Assembly (NCBI GenBank): GCA_009930475.1
Contig: RZYC01000001.1
Coordinates: forward strand, 17,062-81,061
Source of the DNA: Spartobacteria bacterium
GTDB lineage: Bacteria; Verrucomicrobiota; Kiritimatiellia; RZYC01
Direction: 5' to 3'
Length of the DNA stretch: 64,000 nt
Below are positions 3,590-48,942 of the stretch, in pieces. The translations under genes and the position numbers were made by a program. The notes beneath the pieces are model-generated. The model saw only the letters and a list, made by a program, of their open reading frames with translations. It was not told the DNA's origin and did not search any database. Every line of letters begins with the position of its first letter. Position 1 is the stretch's first letter.

Positions 3590-5305
3590 ATGGCGTACGA
3601 AGTACTTGCACGAAAATGGCGACCACAGCAGTTTGATCAGCTGGTGGGACAGGAACACGTGGCGCGCACTCTGAGCAATGCCATTCAGACCGGACGGATT
3701 GCCCATGCTTATTTGTTCGTGGGGCCGCGAGGCATAGGTAAAACCTCGTCAGCACGTATTTTTGCAAAAGCACTGAACTGCATTAACGGACCAACGGTAA
3801 CACCCTGCGATAAATGTGAATCCTGTCTGGAAATTATGACAGGCAGCAGCATGGACGTGATTGAAATCGACGGGGCCTCCAACACCGGTGTGGATAACAT
3901 TCGTGATCTGCGTGAAAATGTGCAGTACGCTCCGGCCCGCGGTCCCTATAAAATCTATATCATCGACGAAGTACATATGCTAAGCACCGGCGCATTCAAT
4001 GCCCTGCTCAAAACGTTGGAAGAACCGCCGCCACATGTAAAATTTATCTTTGCCACCACCGATCCGCAAAAAGTTCTGCCCACGATTCTGTCCCGCTGCC
4101 AGCGATTTGATCTTCGTCCCATTTCTTCCAAAAAAATTATGCAGCACCTCCAGAAAATTTGCGCCGCCGAACAAGTCAATATCAGCGAGGACGCGCTGCT
4201 GGCCATTGCTCGCGGGGCGGAAGGCGGTATGCGTGATGCAGAATCTGCACTGGATCAGCTGATTTCATTCTGTGGCGGCGAAGTGGCTGAAGACGATGTT
4301 ATGTCGGTATTCGGCCTTGTATCCCGCAAAGTTCTCGAAGACCTCGTCACGGCGGTTCTCGTGGGTGATATTCCGCTTGCCATCCAACGAATCGATGAAC
4401 TGGATCGGGATGGCAAAGATATGCTTCGTCTTATTGTCGAGCTGATTCGCTATCTTCGCAATTTGCTGATAATCAAATTTACGCCCGATCAGATTGAGCT
4501 GCTCGACACATCGGAAGGCCAGATCGTGGCATTGCGCACTCAGGCAGAGAAAGCCGACGCCGATCAGATTCTGCGCATGATTCAGATTCTAACCGATGCC
4601 GACGAGCGGATGCGCTACGCATTATCTCGACGAACGCTCCTTGAAGTGGCGGTCATACAATGCGCCCGCGTTGCACAGGTTGTCCCTATCGCCAAGGTGA
4701 TGAAGACCCTCGAGCAGCTTAAAAAGGGATGCCAGATTGTTGCAGGTTCCCCCGTGAGCGAATCACCCGTTACGTATACGCCGCACCCGTCCATTCCCGA
4801 AAAAAAAAATGACATAGCTCCCCCTGAACCCGCTTCCGAACCGGCATATGACCCGGACGACTATGAAAAGGACCGTATCCTGCTCAACGATGACTGGGAA
4901 GAGATCAAGCAAAGCGCGTCGCGCTTTTCCATGCGCGCCGGAACCTGTCTGAAAGATGCACAGGTCGTCCATGTCAGTGAAGACCGTGTAACCATTGGTT
5001 TTGATCCACAGTTTGCCAATGAACGAAGCGAGATGGAAACGGTGCGGAACCGACGAGCCATTGTTATGGCCATCAAAGGCAAGCTTAACCGTCCCGTCGA
5101 TATTCAATTCACAACCATGGCCGTCAAAGAAATCCTTCCAAGCGATCAGGTTGTTGAAAAAAAAAACGAAGTGAAAGCCGGTAAAATGAAAATTACCGGC
5201 AAAAGTAGCATGTCCAAAGAAGATCGTGACAAATGGATGAAGAACGAACAGGTTAAACTCACGTTGGAAGAATTCAACGGCGATATCGTTGATATACGGT
5301 GCTGA
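3590..5305 (+). CDS. dnaX: DNA polymerase III subunit gamma/tau
   Basis: MAYEVLARKWRPQQFDQLVGQEHV…, the Walker A motif GPRGIGKTS, the zinc-module cysteines (CDKCESC) and an AAA+ clamp-loader domain are present, giving 571 aa. A TGAGGTG RBS precedes the start. Confidence 0.9.
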   Translation: MAYEVLARKWRPQQFDQLVGQEHVARTLSNAIQTGRIAHAYLFVGPRGIGKTSSARIFAKALNCINGPTVTPCDKCESCLEIMTGSSMDVIEIDGASNTGVDNIRDLRENVQYAPARGPYKIYIIDEVHMLSTGAFNALLKTLEEPPPHVKFIFATTDPQKVLPTILSRCQRFDLRPISSKKIMQHLQKICAAEQVNISEDALLAIARGAEGGMRDAESALDQLISFCGGEVAEDDVMSVFGLVSRKVLEDLVTAVLVGDIPLAIQRIDELDRDGKDMLRLIVELIRYLRNLLIIKFTPDQIELLDTSEGQIVALRTQAEKADADQILRMIQILTDADERMRYALSRRTLLEVAVIQCARVAQVVPIAKVMKTLEQLKKGCQIVAGSPVSESPVTYTPHPSIPEKKNDIAPPEPASEPAYDPDDYEKDRILLNDDWEEIKQSASRFSMRAGTCLKDAQVVHVSEDRVTIGFDPQFANERSEMETVRNRRAIVMAIKGKLNRPVDIQFTTMAVKEILPSDQVVEKKNEVKAGKMKITGKSSMSKEDRDKWMKNEQVKLTLEEFNGDIVDIRC

Positions 5306-5357
5306 GCAACATGTCGAACATGGGCGTTTTGTCGCAGACCAGCTGAAATGCGCATGG

Positions 5358-5400
5358 GCATTTTGTCATGAGCGGACAAAATGCACAGTGCTTTCGCACT
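5358..5400 (+). terminator. Stem-loops downstream of dnaX, a possible terminator
   Basis: A perfect 10-bp inverted repeat GCATTTTGTC/GACAAAATGC (5358-5384) sits 50 nt after the dnaX stop and is followed by a second small hairpin (AGTGC…GCACT). There is no strong U-run, so this is a weak call. A diverged copy of the same motif lies at 7725-7760. Confidence 0.3.
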
Positions 5401-5452
5401 TTCAATAACTCCATGTCGCAGACCACATGCTTTTATTTCCACTGCAAAAATT

Positions 5453-5540
5453 AAAAAGTTCCAATGATTGGAACTTTTAACTCTCTACTATTCCAATGAT
5501 TGGAACTTTTAATTTAAAAAGTTCCAATGGTTGGAACATT
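5453..5540. repeat. REP-like palindromic repeat cluster A (3 units)
   Basis: There are three units of the near-perfect palindrome AAAAGTTCCAATGATTGGAACTTTT: 5453-5478, 5491-5510 and 5517-5540. The cluster lies between the convergent dnaX and RAYT paralog 2. Confidence 0.85.
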
Positions 5541-5559
5541 GTAAATTCTTTCTATGGAT

Positions 5560-5870
5560 ATAAACTTGGCACGCCTACTGCTCCTTCAACGATGCATATT
5601 ATTTGTTCTTTAACATTAGCATTACTTAGGCTGGCAAGACCGACTGATTTATTCTCCGCCCTGAGGCTGGGGAGTGACAAGCAGGCCGCCGCAGACCCGA
5701 ACGCGCTGCAAGCCGCTTGCTCCACACACACACACCGTCACCCATAAAACAGTAAGCCAAACCAGTCTTGATTACACGTTCACGAGAAAACCTCAGCGCG
5801 TTATGCGCACTCCTTCATACACAATGCCGGGCCGGAGCGGGAATAACCCCGCCCCGGCCGGTGTCGTTTT
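5560..5870 (+). pseudogene. Diverged duplicate of the 5' region of the hsp20-like gene (relic copy of 7920-8330), including a relic sigma-54 promoter
   Basis: Nucleotide similarity of roughly 70-80% runs through 5567-5870 versus 7925-8330. For example TTGGCACGCCTACTGCT matches TTGGCACGCGTATTGCTG, and …ATGCGCACTCCTTCATACACAATGCCGGGCCGGAGCGGGAATAACCCCGCCCCGGCC matches 8262-8320. Internal stops and frame changes are present, and only short spurious ORFs (5496-5747, 5674-5994) remain. Confidence 0.45.
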
Positions 5871-5900
5871 AAGACTTGTTGTTTCTAAAATTACTCCGAC

Positions 5901-6950
5901 TCAGCACCAATGTCCCAGATCACGAATGGTATACAAGCCGTCCCACCCTCCGCGTATTTTTCGTGCTCCGGTTTTTCGTGCCGGAGCAAAATAATCCCTG
6001 TTCTCATCAAAGAACTGCTCCACAAACTCCTGAGAGCCGAAGACCTGTCCATCTGAAAAAAAACGACTCCGACATTGTAGTCGTTCGAACGAAGAGATTT
6101 TCATCCGTTTCTTTAATTTGTTTGGAATCATATTCTTATCAAGAAACGCGAAATTAGGGTTTTTACATAGCTCCTCGTACATCAATACCCGCTCCCAGTA
6201 AACATTCAAAGCCGCCGTCCATGAACCCACCTTGTCAGTCGCTCGAACCGTGTTATCCAGCTGTTTCACCCCCGATGCCAGCACCACAATCCCTCTTTGT
6301 GCGGAAAGGCTCCCGCCCATGGCCTCACCTAGCCCGCAAAAACGATATTTCTTGGGATCATCGACCATCCCCGCTCGAACCGGATTCATTTCTATATATG
6401 CCGCCATAGTACGCAGTGCCGTCCCATCCTCCACCAGTACGCTTTTAAAGCGTCGTTCCCACAAGGTTCCGCAACGGCCAGCTCTGCGATTGAACCAGCA
6501 GGAGAATCGCTGTTTCACCTGCTTCATAAACTCACTGATATCGTGCATTCGAACAAGATATCGCTGCTTATCCTCCGCAATAAAAGCTGTTAGCCCCGCC
6601 TGATCCCATGCTTGCCATCTACTACAAATTTCATCTACATCCTCTTTAGAATACAAACAGCGCAATCGATCTATCAACTGCGCATCCGTAATCAAAAGGA
6701 CGTCCGCGCGGTCTGGTTCCTCCAGCAGTAGATGGATATGATTTGTCATCAGCGCATACGTTAGAACGCGTACTCCGGAGAACCCCTCAACCCGTCGAAT
6801 CAAACGGCGCATGTGTTCTTTTTCCACAGATCCCAGCAGCATATCCCGATTCACAATGCGCGACATGCAATGATAGTAGGCCAAATGATCGCGTTTTATT
6901 CGTGTTTGTTTCATGAATCGATACAAGCATGGGAACATATATAAATGCAA
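5901..6950 (-). mobile_element. RAYT/IS200-like Y1 HUH transposase paralog 2
   Basis: MKQTRIKRDHLAYYHCMSRIV… carries the HUH motif TNHIHLLL, the tyrosine motif AAYIEMNPVRAG, and the conserved C-terminal block …SRFFSDGQVFGSQEFVEQFFDENRDYF…LYTIRDLGHWC. REP clusters flank it at 5453-5540 and 7813-7903. Confidence 0.75.
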
Positions 6951-7052
6951 TAAAATATATTAAATAATAGAATGTATATATAATTATATCTCTTCGATAT
7001 TTACAGCGCGATGTGTACTCGATATAAAAAGTGGCAATAACAAAGGCGGCAT

Positions 7053-7682
7053 GTGATGGATGCGATGATGATTTTTTCCGGTTTACTCTTGGTGATGGGG
7101 ATGGTGATTTCTGCGGGGGCTGGGATTTGGTTTCTGGTGATTGCTTTTAAGGAAAGTGTTTTGTGGGGGCTGGCGGTGTTGCTTCTGCCTGTTGCGGGGC
7201 TGGTATTCACGATTATGCATTGGTCGGATGTGTGGCGGACGGTGGTGGCGAATCTGGCGGGATATGCGGTGTGTGTGCTGGCGGCGGTGGTGATGTTTTC
7301 ATCGCATCCTGAATTTGTGGAGAGTATGGCACGATCCATGGAGGTGTCGGCGATGCAGCAATCGTCGGGCGGCGACGGGTCGGGGATGGAATTGAAGGAA
7401 ATGCTGCGGCAGGCAAAGCTGGAGGCGGAGCGGGCGAGGCAGGATGCGGCCGCTGAAAGAGAGACGCGCGAGCGTGTTGAGGCTGCTGAGGCTGCGCTTG
7501 CGGAGCAGGGAGAAGCTGGCGTGCAGGGGCTTATCGGTAAGTCACTGCACGAGGTGGTGCGTATTCTGGGCGAGCCGCCTAACACCTATCAGACCTCCAG
7601 GGGTAGAACCATTTATTTGTATGATGCCTATGAAGTCACATCGGCTGACGGACTGACGGTCAGTGATGTGACAGCGAAGTGA
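7053..7682 (+). CDS. Hypothetical membrane protein (3 TM helices plus a charged coiled-coil segment)
   Basis: There are three hydrophobic helices (IFSGLLLVMGMVISAGAGIWFLVIAF, LWGLAVLLLPVAGLVFTI, LAGYAVCVLAAVVMF) followed by an E/A/R-rich segment. The G-rich first and third codon positions are typical of genuine coding sequence. The antisense ORF 7001-7585 was rejected. Confidence 0.45.
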   Translation: MMDAMMIFSGLLLVMGMVISAGAGIWFLVIAFKESVLWGLAVLLLPVAGLVFTIMHWSDVWRTVVANLAGYAVCVLAAVVMFSSHPEFVESMARSMEVSAMQQSSGGDGSGMELKEMLRQAKLEAERARQDAAAERETRERVEAAEAALAEQGEAGVQGLIGKSLHEVVRILGEPPNTYQTSRGRTIYLYDAYEVTSADGLTVSDVTAK

Positions 7683-7812
7683 TCATCGGGCGGGCGATTT
7701 GTCCCATGGGAGGTCGGCGGAGTGCGGGCGTTTTGGCGCACTCGGACAAAAGGCACAGCGTAATGTTTATTTTGACGGGGAGATGTTTGAGGCGGGGCTT
7801 TTTATGGAAAAT

Positions 7813-7903
7813 AAAAAGTTCCAATGATTGGAAGTTTTAACATGTTGTTTTTCCAGTGGTTGGAAGTTTTGTTTTAAAAAGTTCCAATGATTGGAACTTT
7901 TTA
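7813..7903. repeat. REP-like palindromic repeat cluster B (3 units)
   Basis: Units are at 7813-7838 (…GATTGGAAGTTTT), 7851-7870 (TTCCAGTGGTTGGAAGTTTT) and 7877-7903 (AAAAGTTCCAATGATTGGAACTTTTTAA). Confidence 0.85.
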
Positions 7904-7925
7904 ATATTTCCTCTGAGCGTGATAT

Positions 7926-7942
7926 TGGCACGCGTATTGCTG
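7926..7942 (+). promoter_or_regulatory. Sigma-54 (-24/-12) promoter for the hsp20-like gene
   Basis: TGGCACGCGTATTGCTG matches the TGGCACG-N4-TTGCW consensus, with exactly 10 nt between GG and GC. It lies about 60 nt upstream of the ATG at 8005. A degraded copy (TGGCACGCCTACTGCT) is at 5577-5592 in the duplicated segment. Confidence 0.5.
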
Positions 7943-8004
7943 TGTTGAATGTCAGATTAAAACATTAAACGAAGTACAGCAGAAAGGATTTGGGGAAAGC
8001 GGAT

Positions 8005-8754
8005 ATGCGACAGTGGAACTGGACAGCACTCATACATAGTATCACGGCAGACCGCATTGTTCTTTTTACCGTTTTAGCTTTTCAGGTTGGTTTGGCCGGC
8101 TGGTTCTATACCTACACCCGCGAGGGTGACAAACAAGCGGCCTCAGAACTGAACACACCTGACGGCCGATTGTCGATCCAACACACACAAAACGTCGCTT
8201 CTCAGCCAGTCGGTCAACCAGCCTTTTCCGATTCATCATCAGTAATACCCTCATCAATGCGCTCAATGCGCACTCCTTCACACAGTGCTGGGATGGGGCG
8301 GGTGATAACCCCGCCCCATCCTGTGGCATTAATGGATGAATCGTTTATCACTCCGATATCTTTTACGGATTCGCGCGCCGTGATGGCTCAGATGCAGGAT
8401 CGTATGCGTCGCCGGATGGAAGCGTATCAGCAGAAAAATGCTCTTATTTATTCTGATGATGACTGGTCTGGACTGGCGCGGAGTCCCACGATGGATATGC
8501 GCGAGCGAGGGGATGTCTATGAAGTCACTTTCAGTATTCCGGATGCGAAAAATCGGGATATTACCACGGATTTGCAAGATCGTCTTCTGACGGTTAATGT
8601 GAATCAATCGAATGAATTTGACAGGGGGCATGCCCAGCAGTCGTTTACCAGTCGCATCCTTCTTCCGGAAGACATTGATAGCGACAAAGCCATAGAGACG
8701 CGTTTCAAAGACGGCAATGTGATTCTGAGTATTTCCAAGTCAGCGGCGCAATAA
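8005..8754 (+). CDS. Membrane-anchored small heat-shock protein (Hsp20/alpha-crystallin family)
   Basis: The C-terminus has an alpha-crystallin-domain pattern (…RERGDVYEVTFSIPDAKNRDITTDLQDRLLTV…SFTSRILLPEDIDSDKAIETRFKDGNVILSI…). The N-terminus has a TM helix (IVLFTVLAFQVGLAGWFY) followed by a P/S-rich linker. The ORF track starts at a TTG at 7990; an ATG lies at 8005. Confidence 0.6.
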   Translation: MRQWNWTALIHSITADRIVLFTVLAFQVGLAGWFYTYTREGDKQAASELNTPDGRLSIQHTQNVASQPVGQPAFSDSSSVIPSSMRSMRTPSHSAGMGRVITPPHPVALMDESFITPISFTDSRAVMAQMQDRMRRRMEAYQQKNALIYSDDDWSGLARSPTMDMRERGDVYEVTFSIPDAKNRDITTDLQDRLLTVNVNQSNEFDRGHAQQSFTSRILLPEDIDSDKAIETRFKDGNVILSISKSAAQ

Positions 8755-18120: not shown

Positions 18121-18152
18121 CCTTCAATGATTGGAACTTTCGATGGTTGGTT
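18121..18152. repeat. Truncated REP-like remnant
   Basis: CCTTCAATGATTGGAACTTTCGATGGTTGG contains one near-complete REP core plus half of a second. It lies between the Fic remnant and the hppA stop. Confidence 0.45.
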
Positions 18153-29388: not shown

Positions 29389-30402
29389 ATGAGAAGAAAA
29401 CGAATCAAGCGAGACCACCTAGCGTACTATCACTGCATGTCGCGCATTGTGGGGCGAGGGATGTTACTGGGCGATGTGGAGAAAGTGCACATGTGCCGGC
29501 TTATTCGCCGTGTTGAAGGCTTTACAGGGGTTCGCGTTCTCACCTATGCGATCATGACGAATCACATTCATCTGCTGCTGGAGGAACCAGATCGTAATGA
29601 GATACATCAGATGACTCACGAAGAGCTTGTGAAGCGATTGCTGTATCTGTACTCGCAAGATGATGTCGACGAAATATGTGCTCGCTGGCGCATGTGGGAG
29701 AGGGAAGGCCTTCTGGCCCTGGTGACCGAGGACAAGCAGCGTTATTTGGTACGGATGCATGATATCAGTGAATTTATGAAACAGGTAAAACAGCGGTTAT
29801 CCTGCTGGTATAACAGAAATAACGGACGGTACGGGACGTTGTGGGATCGTCGCTTTACGAGCGTGCTGGTGGAAGATGGTGCGGCACTGCGCACGATGGC
29901 GGCGTATATCGAAATGAATCCGGTGCGGGCAGGAATGGTGGATGACCCGAAAAAGTACCAGTTCTGCGGATTTGGAGAAGCCATGGCCGGTGTAAAACGG
30001 GCGATGTGCGGCATTATGAAGCTGGCCAGCGGACTGGATTGCATGGATGATGCGGTGCGGGCTCGGGAACGGGCGGATTCATGGGATGTTGCGTCGTCGA
30101 TCTACTGGGAACGGATTTTGATGTACGATGAAGTAACGAAAAACCCTCATTTTGCGATGCTGGATATGGATATGATTCCAGATAAATTGCGTAAACGAAT
30201 GAAAATATCTGATTTTGAACGACTGCGATGTCGAAGTCGCTTTTTTTCCGACGGGCAAGTCTTTGGTTCGCGTGACTTTGTGGAAGATTTTTTTGAGCAT
30301 AATCCTGATCACTTTGGAATCACCCGCAAAACAGGTGCTCGGAAAATACGCGGAGGGTGGAACAGCCTGTACTCCCTTCGAGATCTGGGAAACTGGTGCT
30401 GA
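29389..30402 (+). mobile_element. RAYT/IS200-like Y1 HUH transposase paralog 3
   Basis: MRRKRIKRDHLAYYHCMSRIV… carries the HUH motif TNHIHLLL, the tyrosine motif AAYIEMNPVRAG, and the C-terminal block …SRFFSDGQVFGSRDFVEDFFEHNPDHF…LYSLRDLGNWC. It is about 75% identical to paralog 2. Confidence 0.75.
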
Positions 30403-36682: not shown

Positions 36683-36770
36683 AAAGTTCCAATGATTGGA
36701 TGTTTTCGTTTTAAAACTTCCAGACATTGGAACTTTTTTTCTGGAAAGTTCCAACGACTGGAACTTTTTT
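36683..36770. repeat. REP-like palindromic repeat cluster D (3 units)
   Basis: Units are at 36683-36707 (AAAAGTTCCAATGATTGGATGTTTT), 36713-36739 (AAAACTTCCAGACATTGGAACTTTTTT) and 36744-36770 (GAAAGTTCCAACGACTGGAACTTTTTT). The cluster lies between convergent gene ends. Confidence 0.85.
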
Positions 36771-37470: not shown

Positions 37471-39297
37471 TTATTCGGGCGTCTTGAGGGGAAGCCGAAT
37501 ACTGAAGGTGGTTTTGCCGGATTTGCTGGTGCAGCTCATAAGACCGTCGTGAGATTCGATGATGTGCTGGCAGATGGACAGGCCGAGGCCGGTATTGGTT
37601 TTGCCGACTTTGGTACTGAAAAAGGGATCGAATATTTTATCCATCACTTCAGGGGGGATGCCGCTGCCATTGTCAGTGACGGTAATTTCGGCGTATTGAC
37701 CGTCATTCGGACAGGTGGCGGCGATGCGGATGGTTCCACCTTCGGGGACGGCATCCCAGCTGTTGACAATGAGGTTCATCAGGACCTGTTTGAGTTTATT
37801 TTCCTGTCCGGCAATGAAGATGGCTTCGCCGGGGTCACGGATGATATTGATGTTTTTCTGCCGCAGTTTGTGGTTGAGAAGGATGAGGATATCGTCGATG
37901 AGCGGCTGGACGGCGACGCGGCGCATAACGGGTATGCGGTTGATTTTTGAAAAGGACAGGAGGCTCTCTACAATACCGGCGATGCGTTTGAGTTCGGCGT
38001 CCACCTTTTCCAGTTTTCGGAGAGAATCTTCGTCCTGCATTTTCCGGCGCATGATGGCGACATAATTACTGATGATGCCCAGAGGGTTATTGATTTCATG
38101 AGCAACACCGGCGGCCAGTTCGGCGATGGATTCGATTTTTTGTGAGCGAAGCAGGTATTCATTAACCTGACGGTCACGCGTGATATCTTCGAAGATGATA
38201 ATGGTTCCGAGATAGCGGTCGTTTTCGTCTTTAAAGGGTCCGATGTGAATGCGCAGGTATTTATTATCGCCATGTTTGAATTCGTCCCATGATTTCTCTG
38301 TTCGCTCATCGATGGCCTTCATCAGTTCGGCCGCCTGTTCCGTGATTTCTCCGTCGGCATCTTTGGGAACGATCGCATCCATCGTCAGATTCATGATTCG
38401 GTCCTGATCGATTTCCAGGATTGCGGATGCGGCATAATTGGTAAGATAGACATGGTTCTTTTCGTCGAGAATCACGATGCCTTCAGGGATATTTTTAATG
38501 ATATCTTCGTTGTATTTTTTGAGCAGAAACAATTCCCGGTTGTGATGTTCCAGTTCTTCGCGCGACATAACAAAGGAATAGGTGAGCTTGATAAGCTTCA
38601 CCTTATCGATATCCTGAATTTCCTCGGTTCCGATATTACGTCCGTTCTGCATGATGGTGACACGATCGGCGAGGTCAAATATCTCGTTCATGTTGTGCGT
38701 AATATAAATCACACTGCGTCCCTGGTGGCGCAGACCGAACAGCAGTTTATAAACGCGCTCCATTTCCACCGGCGTAAGCTTAAAGGATATCTCATCGAAA
38801 ATGATCACTTCAGGATGATTAATCAGCACTTTTGCCAGTTCCACCATATGCTGATCGGCCTGCGGCATCAGGCTGAGAGGGATATTGAGATCGAGATCGA
38901 TTCCTAATGAATCCAGCAGCTGCTGCGCTTCTTTCTCCATGACACGCCGTCGCACGCCACCCCACCAGTAGCGCTTAAAATATCCGGCATACATATTCTC
39001 CACCGCATCCAGCGCATTGATCACGTTATTATGCTGATAGAACATGCTGATGCCGTCGCGCATGGCGGTATGCGGCGTGAAATAAGGCATATCAACGCCG
39101 CGATAATAGATCAGACCTTTTTTCATGCGCACTGCACCGCTGAGCACCTTGACGAGGGTGGATTTTCCGGAACGGTGTTCGCCGACAAGACCGTGAATTT
39201 CACCTTTCCGAAGATCAAAATCCACGCCCTTCAGCACCTGTGTGGTGCCGTAATTCACATGAATATTGCGCATCTGCACAATAAGGTCGGATGTCAT
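37471..39297 (-). CDS. Cytoplasmic sensor histidine kinase with an N-terminal ABC-transporter ATP-binding domain (NBD-PAS-HisKA-HATPase_c fusion)
   Basis: Residues 1 to about 240 carry the Walker A motif GEHRSGKST, a Q-loop, a degenerate signature LSLMPQADQHMVELAKVL, the Walker B motif VIIFDEIS and the H-loop YITHNMNE. This region is most similar to the N-terminal half of CUT2 sugar ABC ATPases such as the neighbour at 45117-46607. A PAS-like region follows, then an H-box AHEINNPLG, then HATPase_c (…DNGSGIPPEV…GLGLSICQ…). No TM helices are present. The start overlaps the response-regulator stop (ATGA). Confidence 0.8.
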   Translation of the reverse strand: MTSDLIVQMRNIHVNYGTTQVLKGVDFDLRKGEIHGLVGEHRSGKSTLVKVLSGAVRMKKGLIYYRGVDMPYFTPHTAMRDGISMFYQHNNVINALDAVENMYAGYFKRYWWGGVRRRVMEKEAQQLLDSLGIDLDLNIPLSLMPQADQHMVELAKVLINHPEVIIFDEISFKLTPVEMERVYKLLFGLRHQGRSVIYITHNMNEIFDLADRVTIMQNGRNIGTEEIQDIDKVKLIKLTYSFVMSREELEHHNRELFLLKKYNEDIIKNIPEGIVILDEKNHVYLTNYAASAILEIDQDRIMNLTMDAIVPKDADGEITEQAAELMKAIDERTEKSWDEFKHGDNKYLRIHIGPFKDENDRYLGTIIIFEDITRDRQVNEYLLRSQKIESIAELAAGVAHEINNPLGIISNYVAIMRRKMQDEDSLRKLEKVDAELKRIAGIVESLLSFSKINRIPVMRRVAVQPLIDDILILLNHKLRQKNINIIRDPGEAIFIAGQENKLKQVLMNLIVNSWDAVPEGGTIRIAATCPNDGQYAEITVTDNGSGIPPEVMDKIFDPFFSTKVGKTNTGLGLSICQHIIESHDGLMSCTSKSGKTTFSIRLPLKTPE

Positions 39298-40616
39298 AAC
39301 GCCATATCCAGCTTTTTCATACGGTTGTACAGCGTACGACGACTGATATTCAGGATATCGGCGGCCTTCTGTTTGACACCGCCGCTGCGTTCCAGTGCAT
39401 CTTCGATCATGGAACGACTTAACCGTTCGAAGGCATTTTCATAGGACTCCAATTCATCCTGCTGAAGCAGTTTGGTATATTGCGCGGCCAGATGTTCCGG
39501 CTCAATCAACGGCTTTTCACAGAAAATAACCGACCGCTCAATACAGTTCTTGAGTTCACGGACATTGCCCGGCCAGGTATGGACGCGGATGATCTCCTCC
39601 ACAGAAGGTGAGACGCCCTGAATATTTTTGCCATACACCTTGTTGTACTGCTCGATGAAATAACGGGTCAGCATCATGGCATCATCGGTGCGGTCACGCA
39701 GTGGCGGCAGGTGCAGCGTAATAACGGACAGCCGGTAATACAAATCCTCACGAAACCGCTGGTCTTCGATCAATTCATCCAGATCCTGATGGGTTGCAGC
39801 AATGATGCGGATATCGGTCTTGATGGTTTTATTTCCCCCGACTTTTTCGAATTCCTGTTCCTGAATCACCCGCAGAATTTTTGCCTGGGTTTTCAGACTC
39901 ATATCGCCGATTTCATCCAGAAACAGCGTGCCGCCATTGGCCATCTCGAAGCGCCCAATGCGTTCTTTTATCGCGCCGGTGAAGGCACCTTTTTCATGAC
40001 CGAACAATTCACTTTCCAAGAGTTCGTCGGGAATGGCGGCGCAGTTGATCTTGATAAACGGGGCATCGCTGCGCCGGCTCATCTGCTGGATCGCTCTCGC
40101 CACCAGTTCCTTCCCCGTTCCGCTTTCGCCGGTAATAAGAACCGGAGCATCGGTGGGGGCGGCCTTATCGAGCAGCGACAATACTTTTCTCATCTTCGCA
40201 TCATAAGTAACAATGCCGCCCTGCGGCAGATGAACTCGACCGCCTGCCTGCACCGCCTGTCGGGCATGTTCCCCTATTTCCTGCAGCAGCTGATCGAGAT
40301 CAATGGGTTTGGTATAGACGTTGACGGCACCATAACGCATGGCAAGGACGACATCCTGCACAGTGGGATATCCTGTCATCATCGTTACCGGTAAATCCGA
40401 GGCGATGGACTTGATTTTCTGCAGCAGTTCCACGCCGCCCATTTCAGGCATACGAATATCCAGCATCACCATATCGTAGTTGGTTACCGCGATTTTACCC
40501 AGTGCTTCGGACGGGTGCATGGTCCAGTCCGCGATCATGCCTTCGGATTCCAGCAGTTCCGAAAGCGAGCGGCACATTTCTTCTTCGTCATCCACAATAA
40601 GAATGCGGTAATTCAT
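39294..40616 (-). CDS. Sigma-54-dependent response regulator (NtrC family: REC-AAA+-HTH)
   Basis: The REC domain has a phospho-acceptor Asp (MNYRILIVDDEEE…VMLDIRMPEMGG). The AAA+ sigma-54 activator domain has GESGTGKE, GAFTGA and ESELFGHEKGAFTGA. A C-terminal Fis-type HTH is present. A GAGG RBS precedes the start. Confidence 0.85.
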   Translation of the reverse strand: MNYRILIVDDEEEMCRSLSELLESEGMIADWTMHPSEALGKIAVTNYDMVMLDIRMPEMGGVELLQKIKSIASDLPVTMMTGYPTVQDVVLAMRYGAVNVYTKPIDLDQLLQEIGEHARQAVQAGGRVHLPQGGIVTYDAKMRKVLSLLDKAAPTDAPVLITGESGTGKELVARAIQQMSRRSDAPFIKINCAAIPDELLESELFGHEKGAFTGAIKERIGRFEMANGGTLFLDEIGDMSLKTQAKILRVIQEQEFEKVGGNKTIKTDIRIIAATHQDLDELIEDQRFREDLYYRLSVITLHLPPLRDRTDDAMMLTRYFIEQYNKVYGKNIQGVSPSVEEIIRVHTWPGNVRELKNCIERSVIFCEKPLIEPEHLAAQYTKLLQQDELESYENAFERLSRSMIEDALERSGGVKQKAADILNISRRTLYNRMKKLDMAL

Positions 40617-40664: not shown

Positions 40665-43631
40665 TTAAAAGTTCCAATCATTGGAACTTTTTTCCGGAAA
40701 CCTTCCAATCATTGGAAGTTTTTTTGCTGAAAGTTCCAATGGTTGGAACTTTTCAGCTTCGTGCGCTGCGGCACATTTGAAGCGCGAAATAAGTTCTGTC
40801 AGCTGCGTCGACTGGTGATCAAGGGTTCCTGCGGTCTGAGCCGTTTCATCGGCACCGGCCATGGTTTGCTGGGTGACCTGATCAATCTGTTCCATTCCGA
40901 TCTGAATCTGACTCACGGCCTCGGCCTGTTCGCGGGATGCATCGGCTATATGCTGTACATGTTCGGACGACTTGGAAATACCGCCTACCATGGACTGGAA
41001 TGTTGCGGAAACAGCATGGACGGATTGCTGTCCGGCTTCCACACGGTTCACCGTTTCGTCGATGAGTTCAGCCGTTTCTTTGGCCGCTTTTGCACTGCGT
41101 CCGGCCAGGTTGCGTACTTCATCGGCCACGACCGCAAAGCCTTTGCCGTAGGTTCCGGCGCGGGCGGCTTCGACGGCGGCGTTCAACGCAAGCAAATTGG
41201 TCTGAAAGGCAATGTCGTCGATGACTTTATTGATCTTGGCTATTTGCTGACCCGATTCCTGGATGGCCTGCATGGCCTGCCCCATCATTTCAATTTCTTT
41301 TTCACCCACGCCGGCACTGCGCTGCACCGAAGCGAATTCACGGGAGGCCACATGGGCTTCATTGGCATTTTCATTGGCCTGATGGGATATCTGCGTCATG
41401 GAACTGCTGATTTCCTGCAGGGAAGAGGCCTGACGGGTAGCGCCCTCAGCCAGCTGCTGACTTGCATCATTAATCTGCTGTGCTCCTTCATGAACCTGTC
41501 CCGCCGTATCCGAGACCTGACTCAGGGCCTCACTCAAGTTGTCGAGCATGGAGTTAACATTTGCCTTAAGTTCCGCCAGCCGCCCGTTGTATTCACCGTT
41601 TACACGGATGGTTAAATCGTTTTCTGCCGCCGCGTTCAGTGCGTTGGCCGTTTCATCCAGTGGATCAATAACCGCATCCATGGTGTGATTGATGCCTTCC
41701 ACGATCTGACGGAAGGCCCCTTCATGATTTTCAGGGTCGGCCCGGAAAGACAAATCGCCTGACTGGCCGGCCTCGGCCAGCTGCTGTACATCCTGAATGA
41801 GCAGTCCGATGGCACCGATACATTGATTGATATCGTTCTTCAGTGTCTCGAATTCTCCCTTGAAATCGGCGGCAATGGGCTCGGGCAAAATGCCCGAACC
41901 CAATGCACGGATGCACGCAGCCGCTTTAGTTAGGGGAACGGAGACGGCATCAAGATTGGCATTAAATTCTTCAATGATCGTACAAAAAACGCCGCGATGA
42001 CCGGAGGCATCGGCTCGAACCTGTAATTGACCGGCTATCCCCGCTCTGGCCAGCGATTCGACGTCGGTGATCATATTTTCCAGCGACTCCATCATGGCGA
42101 TAAAACTGGGGGTAAGTCGATCGGCCTCGGATAATTTGCCCATTTCACGATAGGCGGCAAGATCTTCCAGACTGCCTTCGGCGATATGCTCGGCTGTATG
42201 CTGCAGCAGCAGAAAACGATCGCGCAAGTTATTGGCGGCCTTCGCAATCAGCAGATAATCGCCCGTACAGTTTTCGTCCATAGAGCCGGTCATATCATTG
42301 ACAGACAACCGTTCCATCATGCCGATCGCGTTATGAACGGGCGTGGCTACTTTGTCCATCATCTGATTCATGCGCTGGACCATTTCCTGAAAGACGCCAT
42401 CGAATGCTGACACGTTGCCGCGATAGGATAATTCACCCTGCTCGCAGGCCTGAGTCAGCTCTCCAACCTGCCCGATAATCGAGCGAAGGGTCTCTACAAT
42501 AGAACCGAAGGCTCCATATATCCGGCCGATTTCATCACGGCTTGAAGTCGTCAAATCAATATCAATATTACCATTGCGAATATGCCCCGCTGCATCGACC
42601 AATGCACGGATGGGACCAATTATACGACGAATCATGATACCTGCCAAAAAAATGGAAAGGATCAGACCTCCACATAACAGCAGCCCCATGTTGCGGATAC
42701 TGGTTCTGCTCATGGCTGCATCCGCCTCTGCAGCCTGCGCCGCAATATCCGAGCTGGTCTGGGCGACGGTGCGAGCCTTGTCGATGATCTCCTGTGAAAG
42801 GCTGCTCATCCTGGCCACATGGGATGCAAGGGTAACCGTGGTATCCATGCAGGTCTGTACGTTTTTCACGAAATTCATGACCTCTTTCTGCTGCCCGTCT
42901 ATGGCGGCAAGCATACTCCGGTTTCCCGTCTCTTTCTTCAATTCATCCAGCAGCGGTTCCACTGAAAGAGCGGTGGCCTCAGCCAGCTTCCCCATGTCTG
43001 GCTGCTGCGTATGGATGAACTGCATCAACTGCACCTGTGCCTGATTGATCGTGGCGGCAATTTGCTGAATGATATTCATCTGCGTGATGCGAATATCGAT
43101 CACTCTGCGATCGTAATCATAATCCAGTGCTTCGGTAAGTCTTTCTTCTGCATCAACTTTCTGCTTTGCTGCGCTGTCCGTTACCAGTGTTGCGGTTTTG
43201 GCGGCCTGTGCTGCGGCATCACTGCGCTCCGAGACCAGATCAGCGCACTCAATGTATAAATTCCGGTAATCCTTTTCCGCAGTCATCGCGGCCCGAATTA
43301 TCCCTTCCAGCTGTGTCAGTTCCATACTGGCTGCCAGAGAATCCAGCGAGGTCAGTCCTGCGCGCACCGCATCCAGTGCCGTGACACCTCTGTCATGGAC
43401 AGACGGATTTTGTTCCAATAAATAGCGTTTTTCACTGATAAGCACCTGTCCGACATGACTCTCCACTTCAAAGGCATCTTGTTGAAGAACATATGTGCGG
43501 GTTGTCAGCTGGTTGATTTCTTCGCTGAGGCGTACCACCCCGCTAATGCCCATCGCCCCAATGAGCATCGCCACCAATGTGCTTACCGCGAAACCAATCA
43601 CAATCTTGCTTTTTATCGAAACAGTTATCAT
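40665..43631 (-). CDS. Methyl-accepting chemotaxis protein with a periplasmic sensor domain and a multi-HAMP array
   Basis: It has two TM helices, several HAMP-like repeats, and a conserved MCP signalling domain (…[21 protein letters not shown]…[46 protein letters not shown]). A GGAGG RBS lies 9 nt before the chosen ATG (MITVSIK…). The last 30 codons are REP-derived. Confidence 0.85.
40667..40754. repeat. REP-like palindromic repeat cluster E (3 units, opposite orientation, centre base C)
   Basis: Units are at 40667-40693 (AAAAGTTCCAATCATTGGAACTTTTTT), 40698-40725 (AAACCTTCCAATCATTGGAAGTTTTTTT) and 40729-40754 (GAAAGTTCCAATGGTTGGAACTTTTC). The cluster lies inside the 3' end of the MCP reading frame. 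Confidence 0.85.
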
Positions 43632-47873: not shown

Positions 47874-47970
47874 AGTGACAGACACATAAATATTGACTTG
47901 CGATAGGGATTGTATACAGGGAAAGAGTGACAGACACATAAATATTGACTTGCGATAGGGATTGTATACA
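47874..47970. repeat. Tandem direct repeat (2 x 45 bp, 7-bp spacer) immediately upstream of RAYT paralog 4
   Basis: AGTGACAGACACATAAATATTGACTTGCGATAGGGATTGTATACA occurs at 47874-47918 and again, identically, at 47926-47970. The unit is related to the region upstream of paralog 1 (…AGTGACAGTCACATATTAGTTGACACGAG…, 1221-1250). Confidence 0.8.
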
Positions 47971-47979
47971 TTGGATGGC

Positions 47980-48942
47980 ATGAGAAGAAAAAGGATAAAG
48001 CGAGAACGGTTGGCTTACTACCATTGCATGACACGTGTGGTGGGTCGTCAAATGCTGCTGGGATCGGTGGAGAAGGAGCACATGCGTGTGCTGATTCGAA
48101 AAATTGAGGGGTTTACGGGGGTTCGGGTTTTGACTTATGCGCTGATGACAAATCATATTCATTTGCTGTTGGAAGAGCCGGATCGGGCGACGGTGGTAGA
48201 GGATGATGTGTTGGTGGAGCGAATGCGTGCGCTGTATTCGGATGCGGAAATGGAGGAGATTCTGTTGCGGTGGGCGGATTGGCTGGACCAGGGGAATGTG
48301 GCTGCGGTGGAGAATGATAAGCATCTTTACAGAAGAAGGATGCATGATATCAGCGAATTCATGAAGACGTTGAAACATCGGTTTTCATTTTGGTATAATC
48401 GGTTGCATGATCGCAAGGGGACATTGTGGTCGGAACGGTTTAAGAGTGTGCTGGTTGAGGGCGGAAATGCTTTGAGGACCGTGGCGGCGTATATTGAGAT
48501 GAATCCGGTACGGGCGGGTTTGTCATGTGATCCGTCGGAATATCCATTTTGCGGACTTGGTGACGCTGTGACTGGGTCGGGCGCGGCGAAAGATGGTATT
48601 ATGGAGCTGGTGGTTCAAAAGAATGCGGCTTTTGGAATACATGCAGTAGAGCACTCATGGGACGTTCTGTCGGTTGTCTACTTTGATGACGTATTGATGT
48701 ACGGGCGAGCAAAGAGTGACGGGCAACCTCTTGAGCCGGCGGTGGAGTTGTTGTGTCGCAATCGCTTTTTCACTGACGGGCAGGTTCTTGGAGGTAGGGA
48801 TTTCGTTGAGGAATTTTTTCGAGCAAACAGAGCGTATTTTGGACCGCAGAGAGTGGCAGGCGGTCGCAAAGTTAAGGGATGGACGGGATGTCTTTATGCG
48901 ATCCGAGATGTGGGACGAAGTGCGGACGTGCCCAAGAAATAG
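47980..48942 (+). mobile_element. RAYT/IS200-like Y1 HUH transposase paralog 4
   Basis: MRRKRIKRERLAYYHCMTRVVGRQMLLGS… carries the HUH motif TNHIHLLL, the tyrosine motif AAYIEMNPVRAG and the conserved C-terminal block. It is about 80% aa-identical to paralog 1. The ATG start was chosen; the ORF track starts at a TTG at 47962. Confidence 0.75.

Follow-up and report, generated by a model that had tools for sequence, protein, structure and literature searches.

A diverged, non-coding second copy of the 5' part of hsp20 and its upstream region beside a Y1 transposase-like gene in a Kiritimatiellae-like genome

The stretch analysed here (the window) comprises 64,000 nucleotides (nt) of contig RZYC01000001.1 from the metagenome-assembled genome (MAG) of a Spartobacteria bacterium, and between dnaX and an intact gene of the Hsp20 family it carries two diverged copies of one block. 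Copy 2 (7692-8330, forward strand) is the functional counterpart and leads into the intact gene, and copy 1 (5322-5868, forward strand) is a decayed duplicate of the hsp20 upstream region and of codons ~10-109. Copy 1 probably goes back to an ancient local duplication that took in the regulatory region of hsp20 and its first ~109 codons, of which it is a relic. A pseudogene fragment of this sort is a familiar and fairly ordinary type of genome scar, here in a new instance. The 1.8 kb between the copies holds two genes, one for a Y1 HUH (IS200-like) transposase-like protein (5901-6914, reverse strand, 337 aa) and a membrane protein open reading frame (ORF) without family assignment (7056-7682, forward strand, alternative start at 7053).

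A gapped local alignment of 5306-5900 against 7684-8345 places 5322-5868 and 7692-8330 in collinear order on the same strand, with 378 of the 519 ungapped columns identical (72.8%) and 148 gap columns. An earlier reading of these letters (the original prediction) had proposed a co-linear duplication of ~600 bp bracketing the transposase-like gene, there called RAYT paralog 2; the alignment bears this out, and the landmarks named in that reading were found in place. The term tandem, also used there, does not fit, as the copies do not lie head to tail but are offset by 2.36-2.46 kb, with two genes between them. The parts of the block outside the repetitive extragenic palindromes (REPs) were scored against dinucleotide shuffles, with the REPs excluded. 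The part preceding the REPs gave z = 8.7 and the part following the promoter z = 33.5, which is clearly not the pattern of shared REPs alone with flanks below 55% identity. Unrelated control regions of the same size stayed at chance level (z = -0.1 and 1.1), and the score of 67.5 for the true pair of copies fell to 14.5 when the reverse complement was used as a control.

Conservation along the block is uneven. The REP block is 82% identical between the copies, and the best-conserved patch, at the right-hand junction, shows 80.3% identity (5796-5868 against 8259-8330). The segment 5674-5769 is 72.6% identical to 8126-8225, and the weakest one, in the region of the transmembrane helix (5603-5649 against 8057-8105), shows 75.6% with z = 3.4. 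In a four-way MAFFT alignment with the orthologues, the ex-coding part is only 58% identical between the copies; the percentage identity thus depends on gapping, while the homology itself is beyond doubt.

Both copies begin 10-16 nt past the stop codon of the gene upstream (16 nt in the case of dnaX and copy 1) and then follow the same order: a trio of GACAAAAYGC motifs, a triplet of TTCCAATGATTGGAA units, a TGGCAC-N5-YTGC element, a ~100-nt stretch that is a gap in copy 1, and hsp20 codons ~10-109. The trio of copy 1 (5322-5386) consists of three exact matches, at 5324-5333 and 5358-5367 on the reverse strand and at 5375-5384 on the forward strand, the last two forming a 10-bp inverted repeat. 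In copy 2 (7692-7756) the matches at 7694-7703 (reverse), 7728-7737 (reverse) and 7745-7754 (forward) have one mismatch each. The spacing of 34/19 nt is identical in both copies, and the trio is located 180-250 nt upstream of the sigma-54-type promoter. The original prediction labelled the hairpin motif GGGCATTTTGTC...GACAAAATGC (5356-5388 and 7726-7758) a terminator. This label is not upheld: copy 2, the functional one, forms only an imperfect hairpin, and in L004, one of two contigs with an hsp20 orthologue, the motif is a direct repeat (4655-4695). The GACAAAAYGC motifs look like putative protein- or activator-binding sites rather than a terminator.

The REP triplets occupy 5448-5544 in copy 1 (cores TTCCAATGATTGGAA starting at 5459, 5491 and 5522) and 7808-7904 in copy 2 (cores starting at 7819, 7851 and 7882). 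Their 32/31-nt spacing is common to these two copies only, the two other triplets of the window being spaced 31/31, and the two are 79% identical to each other and 63-73% identical to the other triplets. Downstream of the triplet in copy 2 lies the sigma-54-type promoter of hsp20, TGGCACGCGTATTGCT (7926-7941, forward strand), an exact match to TGGCAC-N5-TTGCW. Its remnant in copy 1, TGGCACGCCTACTGCT (5567-5582, forward strand), retains GG-N10-GC and has one mismatch, C for T before the GC. The string TTGGCAC...TGC is invariant in copy 1, copy 2, L004 and L005 (the second orthologue contig), and the flanks vary. The pattern as such has four matches in the window against 2.9 expected, no excess over chance. 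A gene for an NtrC-family activator is present in the window at 39294-40616, and the role of the sigma-54 promoter is predicted from sequence.

The pseudo-hsp20 fragment of copy 1 (5592-5868, forward strand) is homologous to 8033-8330. The ~100 nt missing from copy 1 comprise the 5' untranslated region, the ribosome-binding site (RBS), the start codon and the first codons. The residues that can still be recognised begin in frame 0 (GSDKQAA...THTH) and continue in frame 1 (RVMRTPSYTMPGRSGNNPAPAGVV), no frame is free of stops, and the fragment ends at hsp20 codon ~109, before the alpha-crystallin domain. Lacking an RBS, a start codon and the alpha-crystallin domain, and being frameshifted, copy 1 is therefore a truncated, non-coding pseudogene fragment that cannot encode Hsp20. 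The duplicated hsp20 stretch had been placed at codons 60-110; its homology to hsp20 stands, and its extent is corrected to codons ~10-109 of 249. The view that the upstream copy has decayed into non-coding DNA with spurious ORFs (5496-5747 and 5674-5994) is confirmed by the switch of frame, the stops, a 1-nt indel at 5588 (within ORF 5496-5747) that is polymorphic between strains, and a protein-family scan in which neither ORF had a family match.

Strain variants from other samples are available on contigs L008 and L009 (98.5% identity) and L002 and L003 (98.7-99.0% identity). Between strains copy 1 differs at 1.6% of positions (9/565), compared with 4.5% for pooled synonymous sites; the intergenic region of copy 2 differs at 1.9% and another intergenic region at 1.2%. 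The REPs and promoter of copy 1 show no difference in 135 nt (Fisher p = 0.004 against the synonymous value). Copy 1 thus behaves as ordinary intergenic DNA and not as freely drifting sequence.

The intact hsp20 gene (8005-8754, forward strand) encodes a protein of 249 aa with an N-terminal membrane anchor. Its alpha-crystallin domain (Pfam HSP20, PF00011, 8.4e-8) is found at residues 170-252 of the 254-residue translation from a TTG start (7990-8754), and the protein set of the MAG lists the same sequence under the name Hsp20 family protein, along with three transposase-like proteins that are likewise encoded exactly in the window. Between strains the gene shows seven synonymous and no non-synonymous differences. 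For comparison with relatives, the orthologue set comprises two Hsp20 proteins, encoded on the short Logan contigs L004 and L005 (66% and 63% protein identity; the only other family members found), and one dnaX relative, on contig L007.

The 3' edge of the duplicated block is marked by a conserved nucleotide element within the hsp20 coding sequence, at codons 81-109 (8245-8330, forward strand; also L004:5153-5248 and L005:463-558). Third-position identity to the two orthologues is 79-86% in the element, as opposed to 40-45% in codons 110-249. Three parts make up the element: a small GCGC-N5-GCGC hairpin, the invariant unpaired strand ATGCGCACTCCTTC and, at 8284-8330, a 19-bp GC-rich hairpin whose folding energy is -32 to -35 kcal/mol in every sequence (-34.4 kcal/mol in copy 2). 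Copy 1 has retained all three parts (5796-5868, forward strand): the GCGC-N5-GCGC hairpin, ATGCGCACTCCTTC, and the long GC hairpin at about 5824-5864 (-31.7 kcal/mol, z = -3.9), which is followed by GUCGUUUU, a run without counterpart in copy 2. The copy 1 element differs from copy 2 by ~30% yet folds at -29.6 kcal/mol, and only 0.3% of random mutants at such a rate are equally stable. Three compensatory pairs were found among the four sequences, one in L004 and two in copy 1, a number reached in 3 of 500 shuffles; the L004 pair combines a synonymous change with a Pro-to-Ser change. The 8245-8330 segment is best regarded as a nucleic-acid-level feature of hsp20 and could be a candidate regulatory RNA structure for this membrane-anchored small heat-shock protein. 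A scan with an intrinsic-terminator consensus did not report the GC hairpin of copy 1, probably because of its bulge and mismatch. Judged by shape only, this hairpin has plausibly been kept to terminate transcription where dnaX and the transposase-like unit converge. The idea that the GC hairpin is a second dispersed repeat family was rejected, as the hairpin is present only in hsp20 and copy 1.

Upstream of hsp20, both L004 and L005 carry GACAAAATG-type motifs, one REP of the same family and TTGGCAC...TGC, and this shared architecture in orthologues of 63-66% identity means that it predates the duplication. The divergence of the copies suggests that the event is old, of roughly the same order as the split from the L004 and L005 relatives: copy 1 is 58-73% identical to copy 2 (27-42% divergence, ex-coding part), whereas copy 2 is 76-78% identical to the orthologues in the same region. 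That copy 1 is further from copy 2 than copy 2 is from the orthologues also fits a long neutral decay of copy 1. The duplication itself appears to have taken place in the lineage of this genome, because both copies have the 32/31-nt triplet spacing. A 15-nt segment common to both copies is missing from L004 and L005; as a deletion in the ancestor of these two explains this equally well, the segment cannot be polarised and is of no help for dating.

The relatives differ in what surrounds these genes. In L007, which comes from the same sample as L005, dnaX (74% identical) is followed by an unrelated convergent gene, a 61%-identical relative has the canonical dnaX-ybaB-recR order, and in L004 a gene for a 1539-aa protein lies upstream of hsp20. 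Neither the L007 gene after dnaX nor the L004 1539-aa gene has homologues in the window. The ancestral adjacency of dnaX and hsp20 expected by the original prediction was thus not found in the relatives. An hsp20 alignment scan of large genome and metagenome contig collections, made for more orthologues or an empty site, gave no confirmed relatives, and a codon-degenerate DNA pattern of the conserved element had no match in genome or metagenome contig collections.

If copy 1 is a relic of such a duplication, it would now serve as a spacer between the convergent dnaX and transposase-like genes. Its REP triplet, with the shape of a bidirectional terminator, and its GC hairpin with the U-run would plausibly end transcription from both sides, as judged from shape, and the repeat, promoter-like and hairpin islands seem better preserved than the remainder. 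The arrival of the Y1 and membrane genes and the truncation at codon ~109 may have been one event or several. The layout is not the product of any one standard event. A tandem duplication would have to be followed by an exact deletion, and target-site duplications of 560 bp are not known from Y1 elements.

Several observations weigh against this explanation. Fragments of pseudogenes in bacteria are usually soon deleted, yet ~290 nt of ex-coding DNA survive here at such divergence. The divergence of copy 1 between strains lies below that of synonymous sites, and copy 1 may be more than a relic. The terminator function of the REPs and the hairpin is proposed from their shape only. An empty-site genome was looked for and not found, which makes any ancestral layout or count of events conjectural. 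Finally, the middle join within the transposase-like gene (6513-6542) is spanned by the MAG contig only, the short-read contigs breaking there.

The original prediction attributed the duplication to REP or RAYT (REP-associated tyrosine transposase) activity, that is, to a Y1 transposase acting on REP hairpins and leaving its gene between the products. We consider this unlikely. Y1 enzymes do act on single-stranded DNA hairpins (IS200/IS605, TnpAREP). The gene between the copies (Pfam Y1_Tnp, PF01797, 6.3e-13; alternative TTG start at 6950) has intact HUH (HIHLLL) and Tyr (YIEMNPVRAG) motifs, REP triplets occur on both sides of it, and a strong hairpin has its foot no more than ~8 nt from the right breakpoint (5868/8330), which is itself 33 nt away from the stop codon of the transposase. 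However, the triplets lie well within the block, ~130 nt from its left edge and ~330 nt from its right edge, which makes the REPs passengers rather than join points, and the breakpoint hairpin is part of hsp20 in every orthologue and did not arrive with the transposase gene. Four paralogs of about 320-340 aa are present in the window, R1 (1253-2272, forward), R2 (the gene discussed here), R3 (29389-30402, forward) and R4 (47962-48942, forward). No REPs were found in the 300-nt flanks of R1, R3 and R4, these three have no flanking duplications, and no GC hairpin is apparent by eye in those flanks. REPs lie within 1 kb of only one of the four paralogs, and those REPs belong to the duplicated block; the nearest is 365 nt from the 3' end of R2, and on its 5' side the REP lies beyond another gene.

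The label RAYT is likewise not sustained by the protein. Against the NCBIfam model REP_Tyr_transpos (NF047646) the four paralogs score 57.7-63.8 bits, with 63.8 for the R2 product, all short of its 80-bit cut-off. Among the best 120 homologues in the database, at least 73 (48-77% identity) belong to this one MAG, the opposite of RAYTs, which are characteristically single-copy and flanked by REPINs (PMC5581495). Terminal repeats or conserved ends were not found in the intervening DNA around R2, nor conserved ends around the four paralogs; paralog homology is confined to the gene, the nucleotide homology to R3 covering 5886-6914 only. With a ratio of non-synonymous to synonymous divergence (pN/pS) of 0.14 between strains, the transposase-like gene is under purifying selection. 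The family is large and domesticated-looking, resembling neither RAYTs nor active insertion sequences (ISs).

A second explanation is that a segment made up of the transposase-like gene, the membrane gene, an upstream region and an hsp20 5' part integrated by recombination in hsp20 near the hairpin element, bringing a substitute 5' end, while the displaced resident one decayed into copy 1. Integrative elements that rebuild their target gene are familiar from e14 in icd and from islands in tRNA genes, and one such event would give the present layout, with direct repeats flanking the insert. The position of the best-conserved patch, with its 14 invariant bases and hairpin, at the right-hand junction agrees with this, as does the common start of both copies just past the upstream stop codon. 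The membrane gene is atypical, with a GC content of 0.56-0.62 and a strong G skew (about +0.4) in a background of about 0.50. Against these points, an integrase or an att-like core was not identified at the locus, Y1 transposases are not known to work in this way, and the transposase-like gene belongs to a numerous resident family under purifying selection. No relative with dnaX adjoining hsp20 was found, and no discontinuity points to a foreign origin: of the two ends of hsp20 it is the 5' one that, if anything, resembles the orthologues more, as the synonymous constraint explains. A test for foreign origin of the 5' part was set aside as uninformative, this constraint dominating the region. 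Taken together, such an integration seems improbable.

It is also doubtful that the 3' boundary is a previously undescribed element, with the ACUCCUUC-containing strand at its core, whose pseudo-copy is kept as a stress-co-regulated non-coding RNA or decoy, or whose hairpin is a Y1 cut site. On this reading the pseudo-copy would be kept because its enhancer-like sites, sigma-54 promoter and element, now with a U-run, are still a working module.

Related to this is the notion that copy 1 has been exapted as a non-coding RNA unit, in which the trio and the sigma-54 promoter would drive a ~280-nt transcript (about 5592-5870), ending at the retained hairpin and U-run, that might act as a co-regulated small RNA, as a decoy for the activator of hsp20 or as a barrier to read-through into the convergent transposase-like gene. 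The three exact motifs of the copy 1 trio, where copy 2 has a mismatch in each, the retained GG-N10-GC, and the strain-invariant REPs and promoter are all consistent with it, and so are the clean deletion of the RBS and start codon and a hairpin that was maintained by compensatory changes and gained the trailing GUCGUUUU. However, at the divergence of the remainder the 16-nt promoter would not be expected to hold significantly more than the two differences that it has, and the body of the RNA is not unusually structured (z = -1.9, mostly from the terminal hairpin). Copy 1 carries an indel polymorphism, intergenic DNA is here generally more conserved than synonymous sites, and Rfam gave nothing above threshold on the locus, only sub-threshold chance matches on the REPs. 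Exaptation is thus held to be quite improbable.

An artefact of assembly, with two loci joined within the conserved part of the transposase-like gene so that the copies are not truly 2.4 kb apart, is very improbable: the short-read contigs from two samples do all break at 6513-6542, and a mosaic protein indicates that joins at the MHDISEFMKQVKQRF motif occur, in assemblies or in nature, but the ORF is intact and collinear with its paralogs across the join, neither half has another partner among the MAG proteins, contigs L006 and L010 share a 22-nt overlap of the kind that paralogs produce where a k-mer graph branches, and the diverged duplication would stand even with a mis-join. The break corresponds to residues ~125-134, the most conserved motif of the paralog family (MHDISEFMKQVKQRF). 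The mosaic is JGI protein P0124, which joins the N-terminal 124 residues of the 5901-6914 product (98%) to the C-terminus of another paralog (97%, P0143). The break and the mosaic at this motif reflect either recurrent assembly chimerism or real recombination among paralogs. L006 and L010, from sample SRR8327731, are 100% identical to the window. Of the contigs of this species from other samples, some run from dnaX through copy 1 into the transposase-like gene and others from the membrane gene through copy 2 into hsp20, and one (L010) links the N-terminus of the transposase to the membrane gene. Both flanks are seen in two other samples (L002, L003, L008 and L009), and apart from the join at 6513-6542 every available assembly of the species agrees with the layout.

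An old same-orientation duplication of the block of trio, REPs, promoter and hsp20 5' part, with a non-coding upstream copy, is accordingly the part of the original prediction that we retain, while its tandem arrangement, its terminator and its REP/RAYT cause are dropped.

Set beside known systems, the locus resembles partial duplicates of the icd'/e14 type, the icd' fragment beside e14 in E. coli being an example of the pseudogene fragments left by local duplication or by integration that rebuilds its target. Both have a truncated, diverged copy of a gene end in direct orientation, a few kb off, with unrelated genes between. Here, however, the 5' end and the whole regulatory region are duplicated, no integrase or att core was found, the divergence is 27-42%, and a Y1 paralog lies in the gap. 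REP-mediated tandem duplications with REPs at the join point were reportedly described in Salmonella and E. coli by Shyamala, Schneider and Ames in 1990; the likeness is the presence of REPs and a duplication at one locus, and as the REPs are here ~130/330 nt from the ends of the unit, they were not the recombination substrates.

With RAYT/TnpAREP proteins (PMC5581495, PMC8266576) the transposase-like gene shares the Y1 HUH signature PF01797, REP_Tyr_transpos as best NCBIfam match, purifying selection and the lack of IS-like termini. It differs in its sub-cut-off score, its length of ~337 aa with a long C-terminal extension, the at least 73 paralogs as compared with about one per genome, and the absence of REPs from the flanks of three of the four window paralogs. 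The REPs themselves are comparable to the REPs and bacterial interspersed mosaic elements of enterobacteria and to the REPINs of Pseudomonas (PMC3116915, PMC3337134) as dispersed extragenic palindromes at gene 3' ends, in regular clusters and with a consensus conserved across relatives. In contrast to these, the stem is AT-rich with A5/T5 flanks, the units form triplets at 31-32 nt rather than inverted doublets, a 5' tetranucleotide of the GTAG type was not seen, and the association with a cognate RAYT is only a candidate one.

The small heat-shock gene ibpB of E. coli has a sigma-54-dependent promoter. Features common to promoters of this type are the TGGCAC-N5-TTGC about 65 nt upstream of the Hsp20 start, the conserved upstream repeats as candidate activator sites, and an NtrC-type gene in the window. 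The present Hsp20 differs in being membrane-anchored and confined to a narrow lineage (three members found), with a REP array between the putative activator sites and the promoter, and with the module doubled.

The REPs are a genuine dispersed extragenic palindrome family. In the window 26 strand-specific matches were found against 3.4 expected, corresponding to 13 palindromic units in four intergenic triplets and one single site. Besides the triplets of the two copies, there are triplets with exact 31/31 spacing between convergent genes (36687-36763) and between a chemoreceptor gene and the gene of the NtrC-type sigma-54 activator (40672-40748), and a single degenerate REP-like unit, CTTCAATGATTGGAA, just 3' of an H+-pyrophosphatase gene (18122-18136). 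All four triplets are located just 3' of genes, and the units have the A5-stem-T5 shape of bidirectional terminators. That the REP triplet enhances the sigma-54 promoter was considered and rejected, as identical triplets lie between the convergent genes and 3' of the chemoreceptor gene. Upstream of hsp20 in L004 and L005 the repeat is present as one unit only, in contrast to the triplets of the window. The consensus AAAAAGTTCCAATCATTGGAACTTTTT is identical at L004 4699-4730, though the L004 Hsp20 is only 66% identical, so the repeat family has been maintained over long evolutionary distances.

The remaining features of the locus are as follows. The dnaX gene for the gamma/tau subunits of DNA polymerase III (3590-5305, forward strand; Pfam DNA_pol3_delta2, 4.9e-48, with gamma3 and lid domains) has its closest relatives in Kiritimatiellae and is followed by a non-coding stretch of 595 nt that contains copy 1. 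Unlike in the 61%-identical relative, ybaB-recR is absent after dnaX, and the conserved operon is broken also in the 74% relative L007. An AT-rich divergent promoter region of 140 nt separates the transposase-like gene from the membrane ORF, and an intergenic region of 322 nt separates the latter from hsp20, which is followed by genes for an ABC transporter and HPr. The membrane ORF had no match in Pfam and NCBIfam scans; its exact product, with an ATG start, is called in the independent contig L010, and exact look-ups of the 337-aa transposase-like protein and of the GTG-start membrane protein gave no match. The pN/pS of the membrane ORF between strains is about 0.25, with three of seven differences non-synonymous, and the ORF is possibly foreign or fast-evolving.

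For annotators, the locus is a clean worked example of how two spurious ORFs, a second sigma-54 promoter and a REP array can together be the remains of a partial gene duplication. Two further observations are possibly of wider use: the very large family of diverged Y1 transposase-like genes in a Kiritimatiellae-like MAG, and an element in the hsp20 coding region with both synonymous constraint and covariation.

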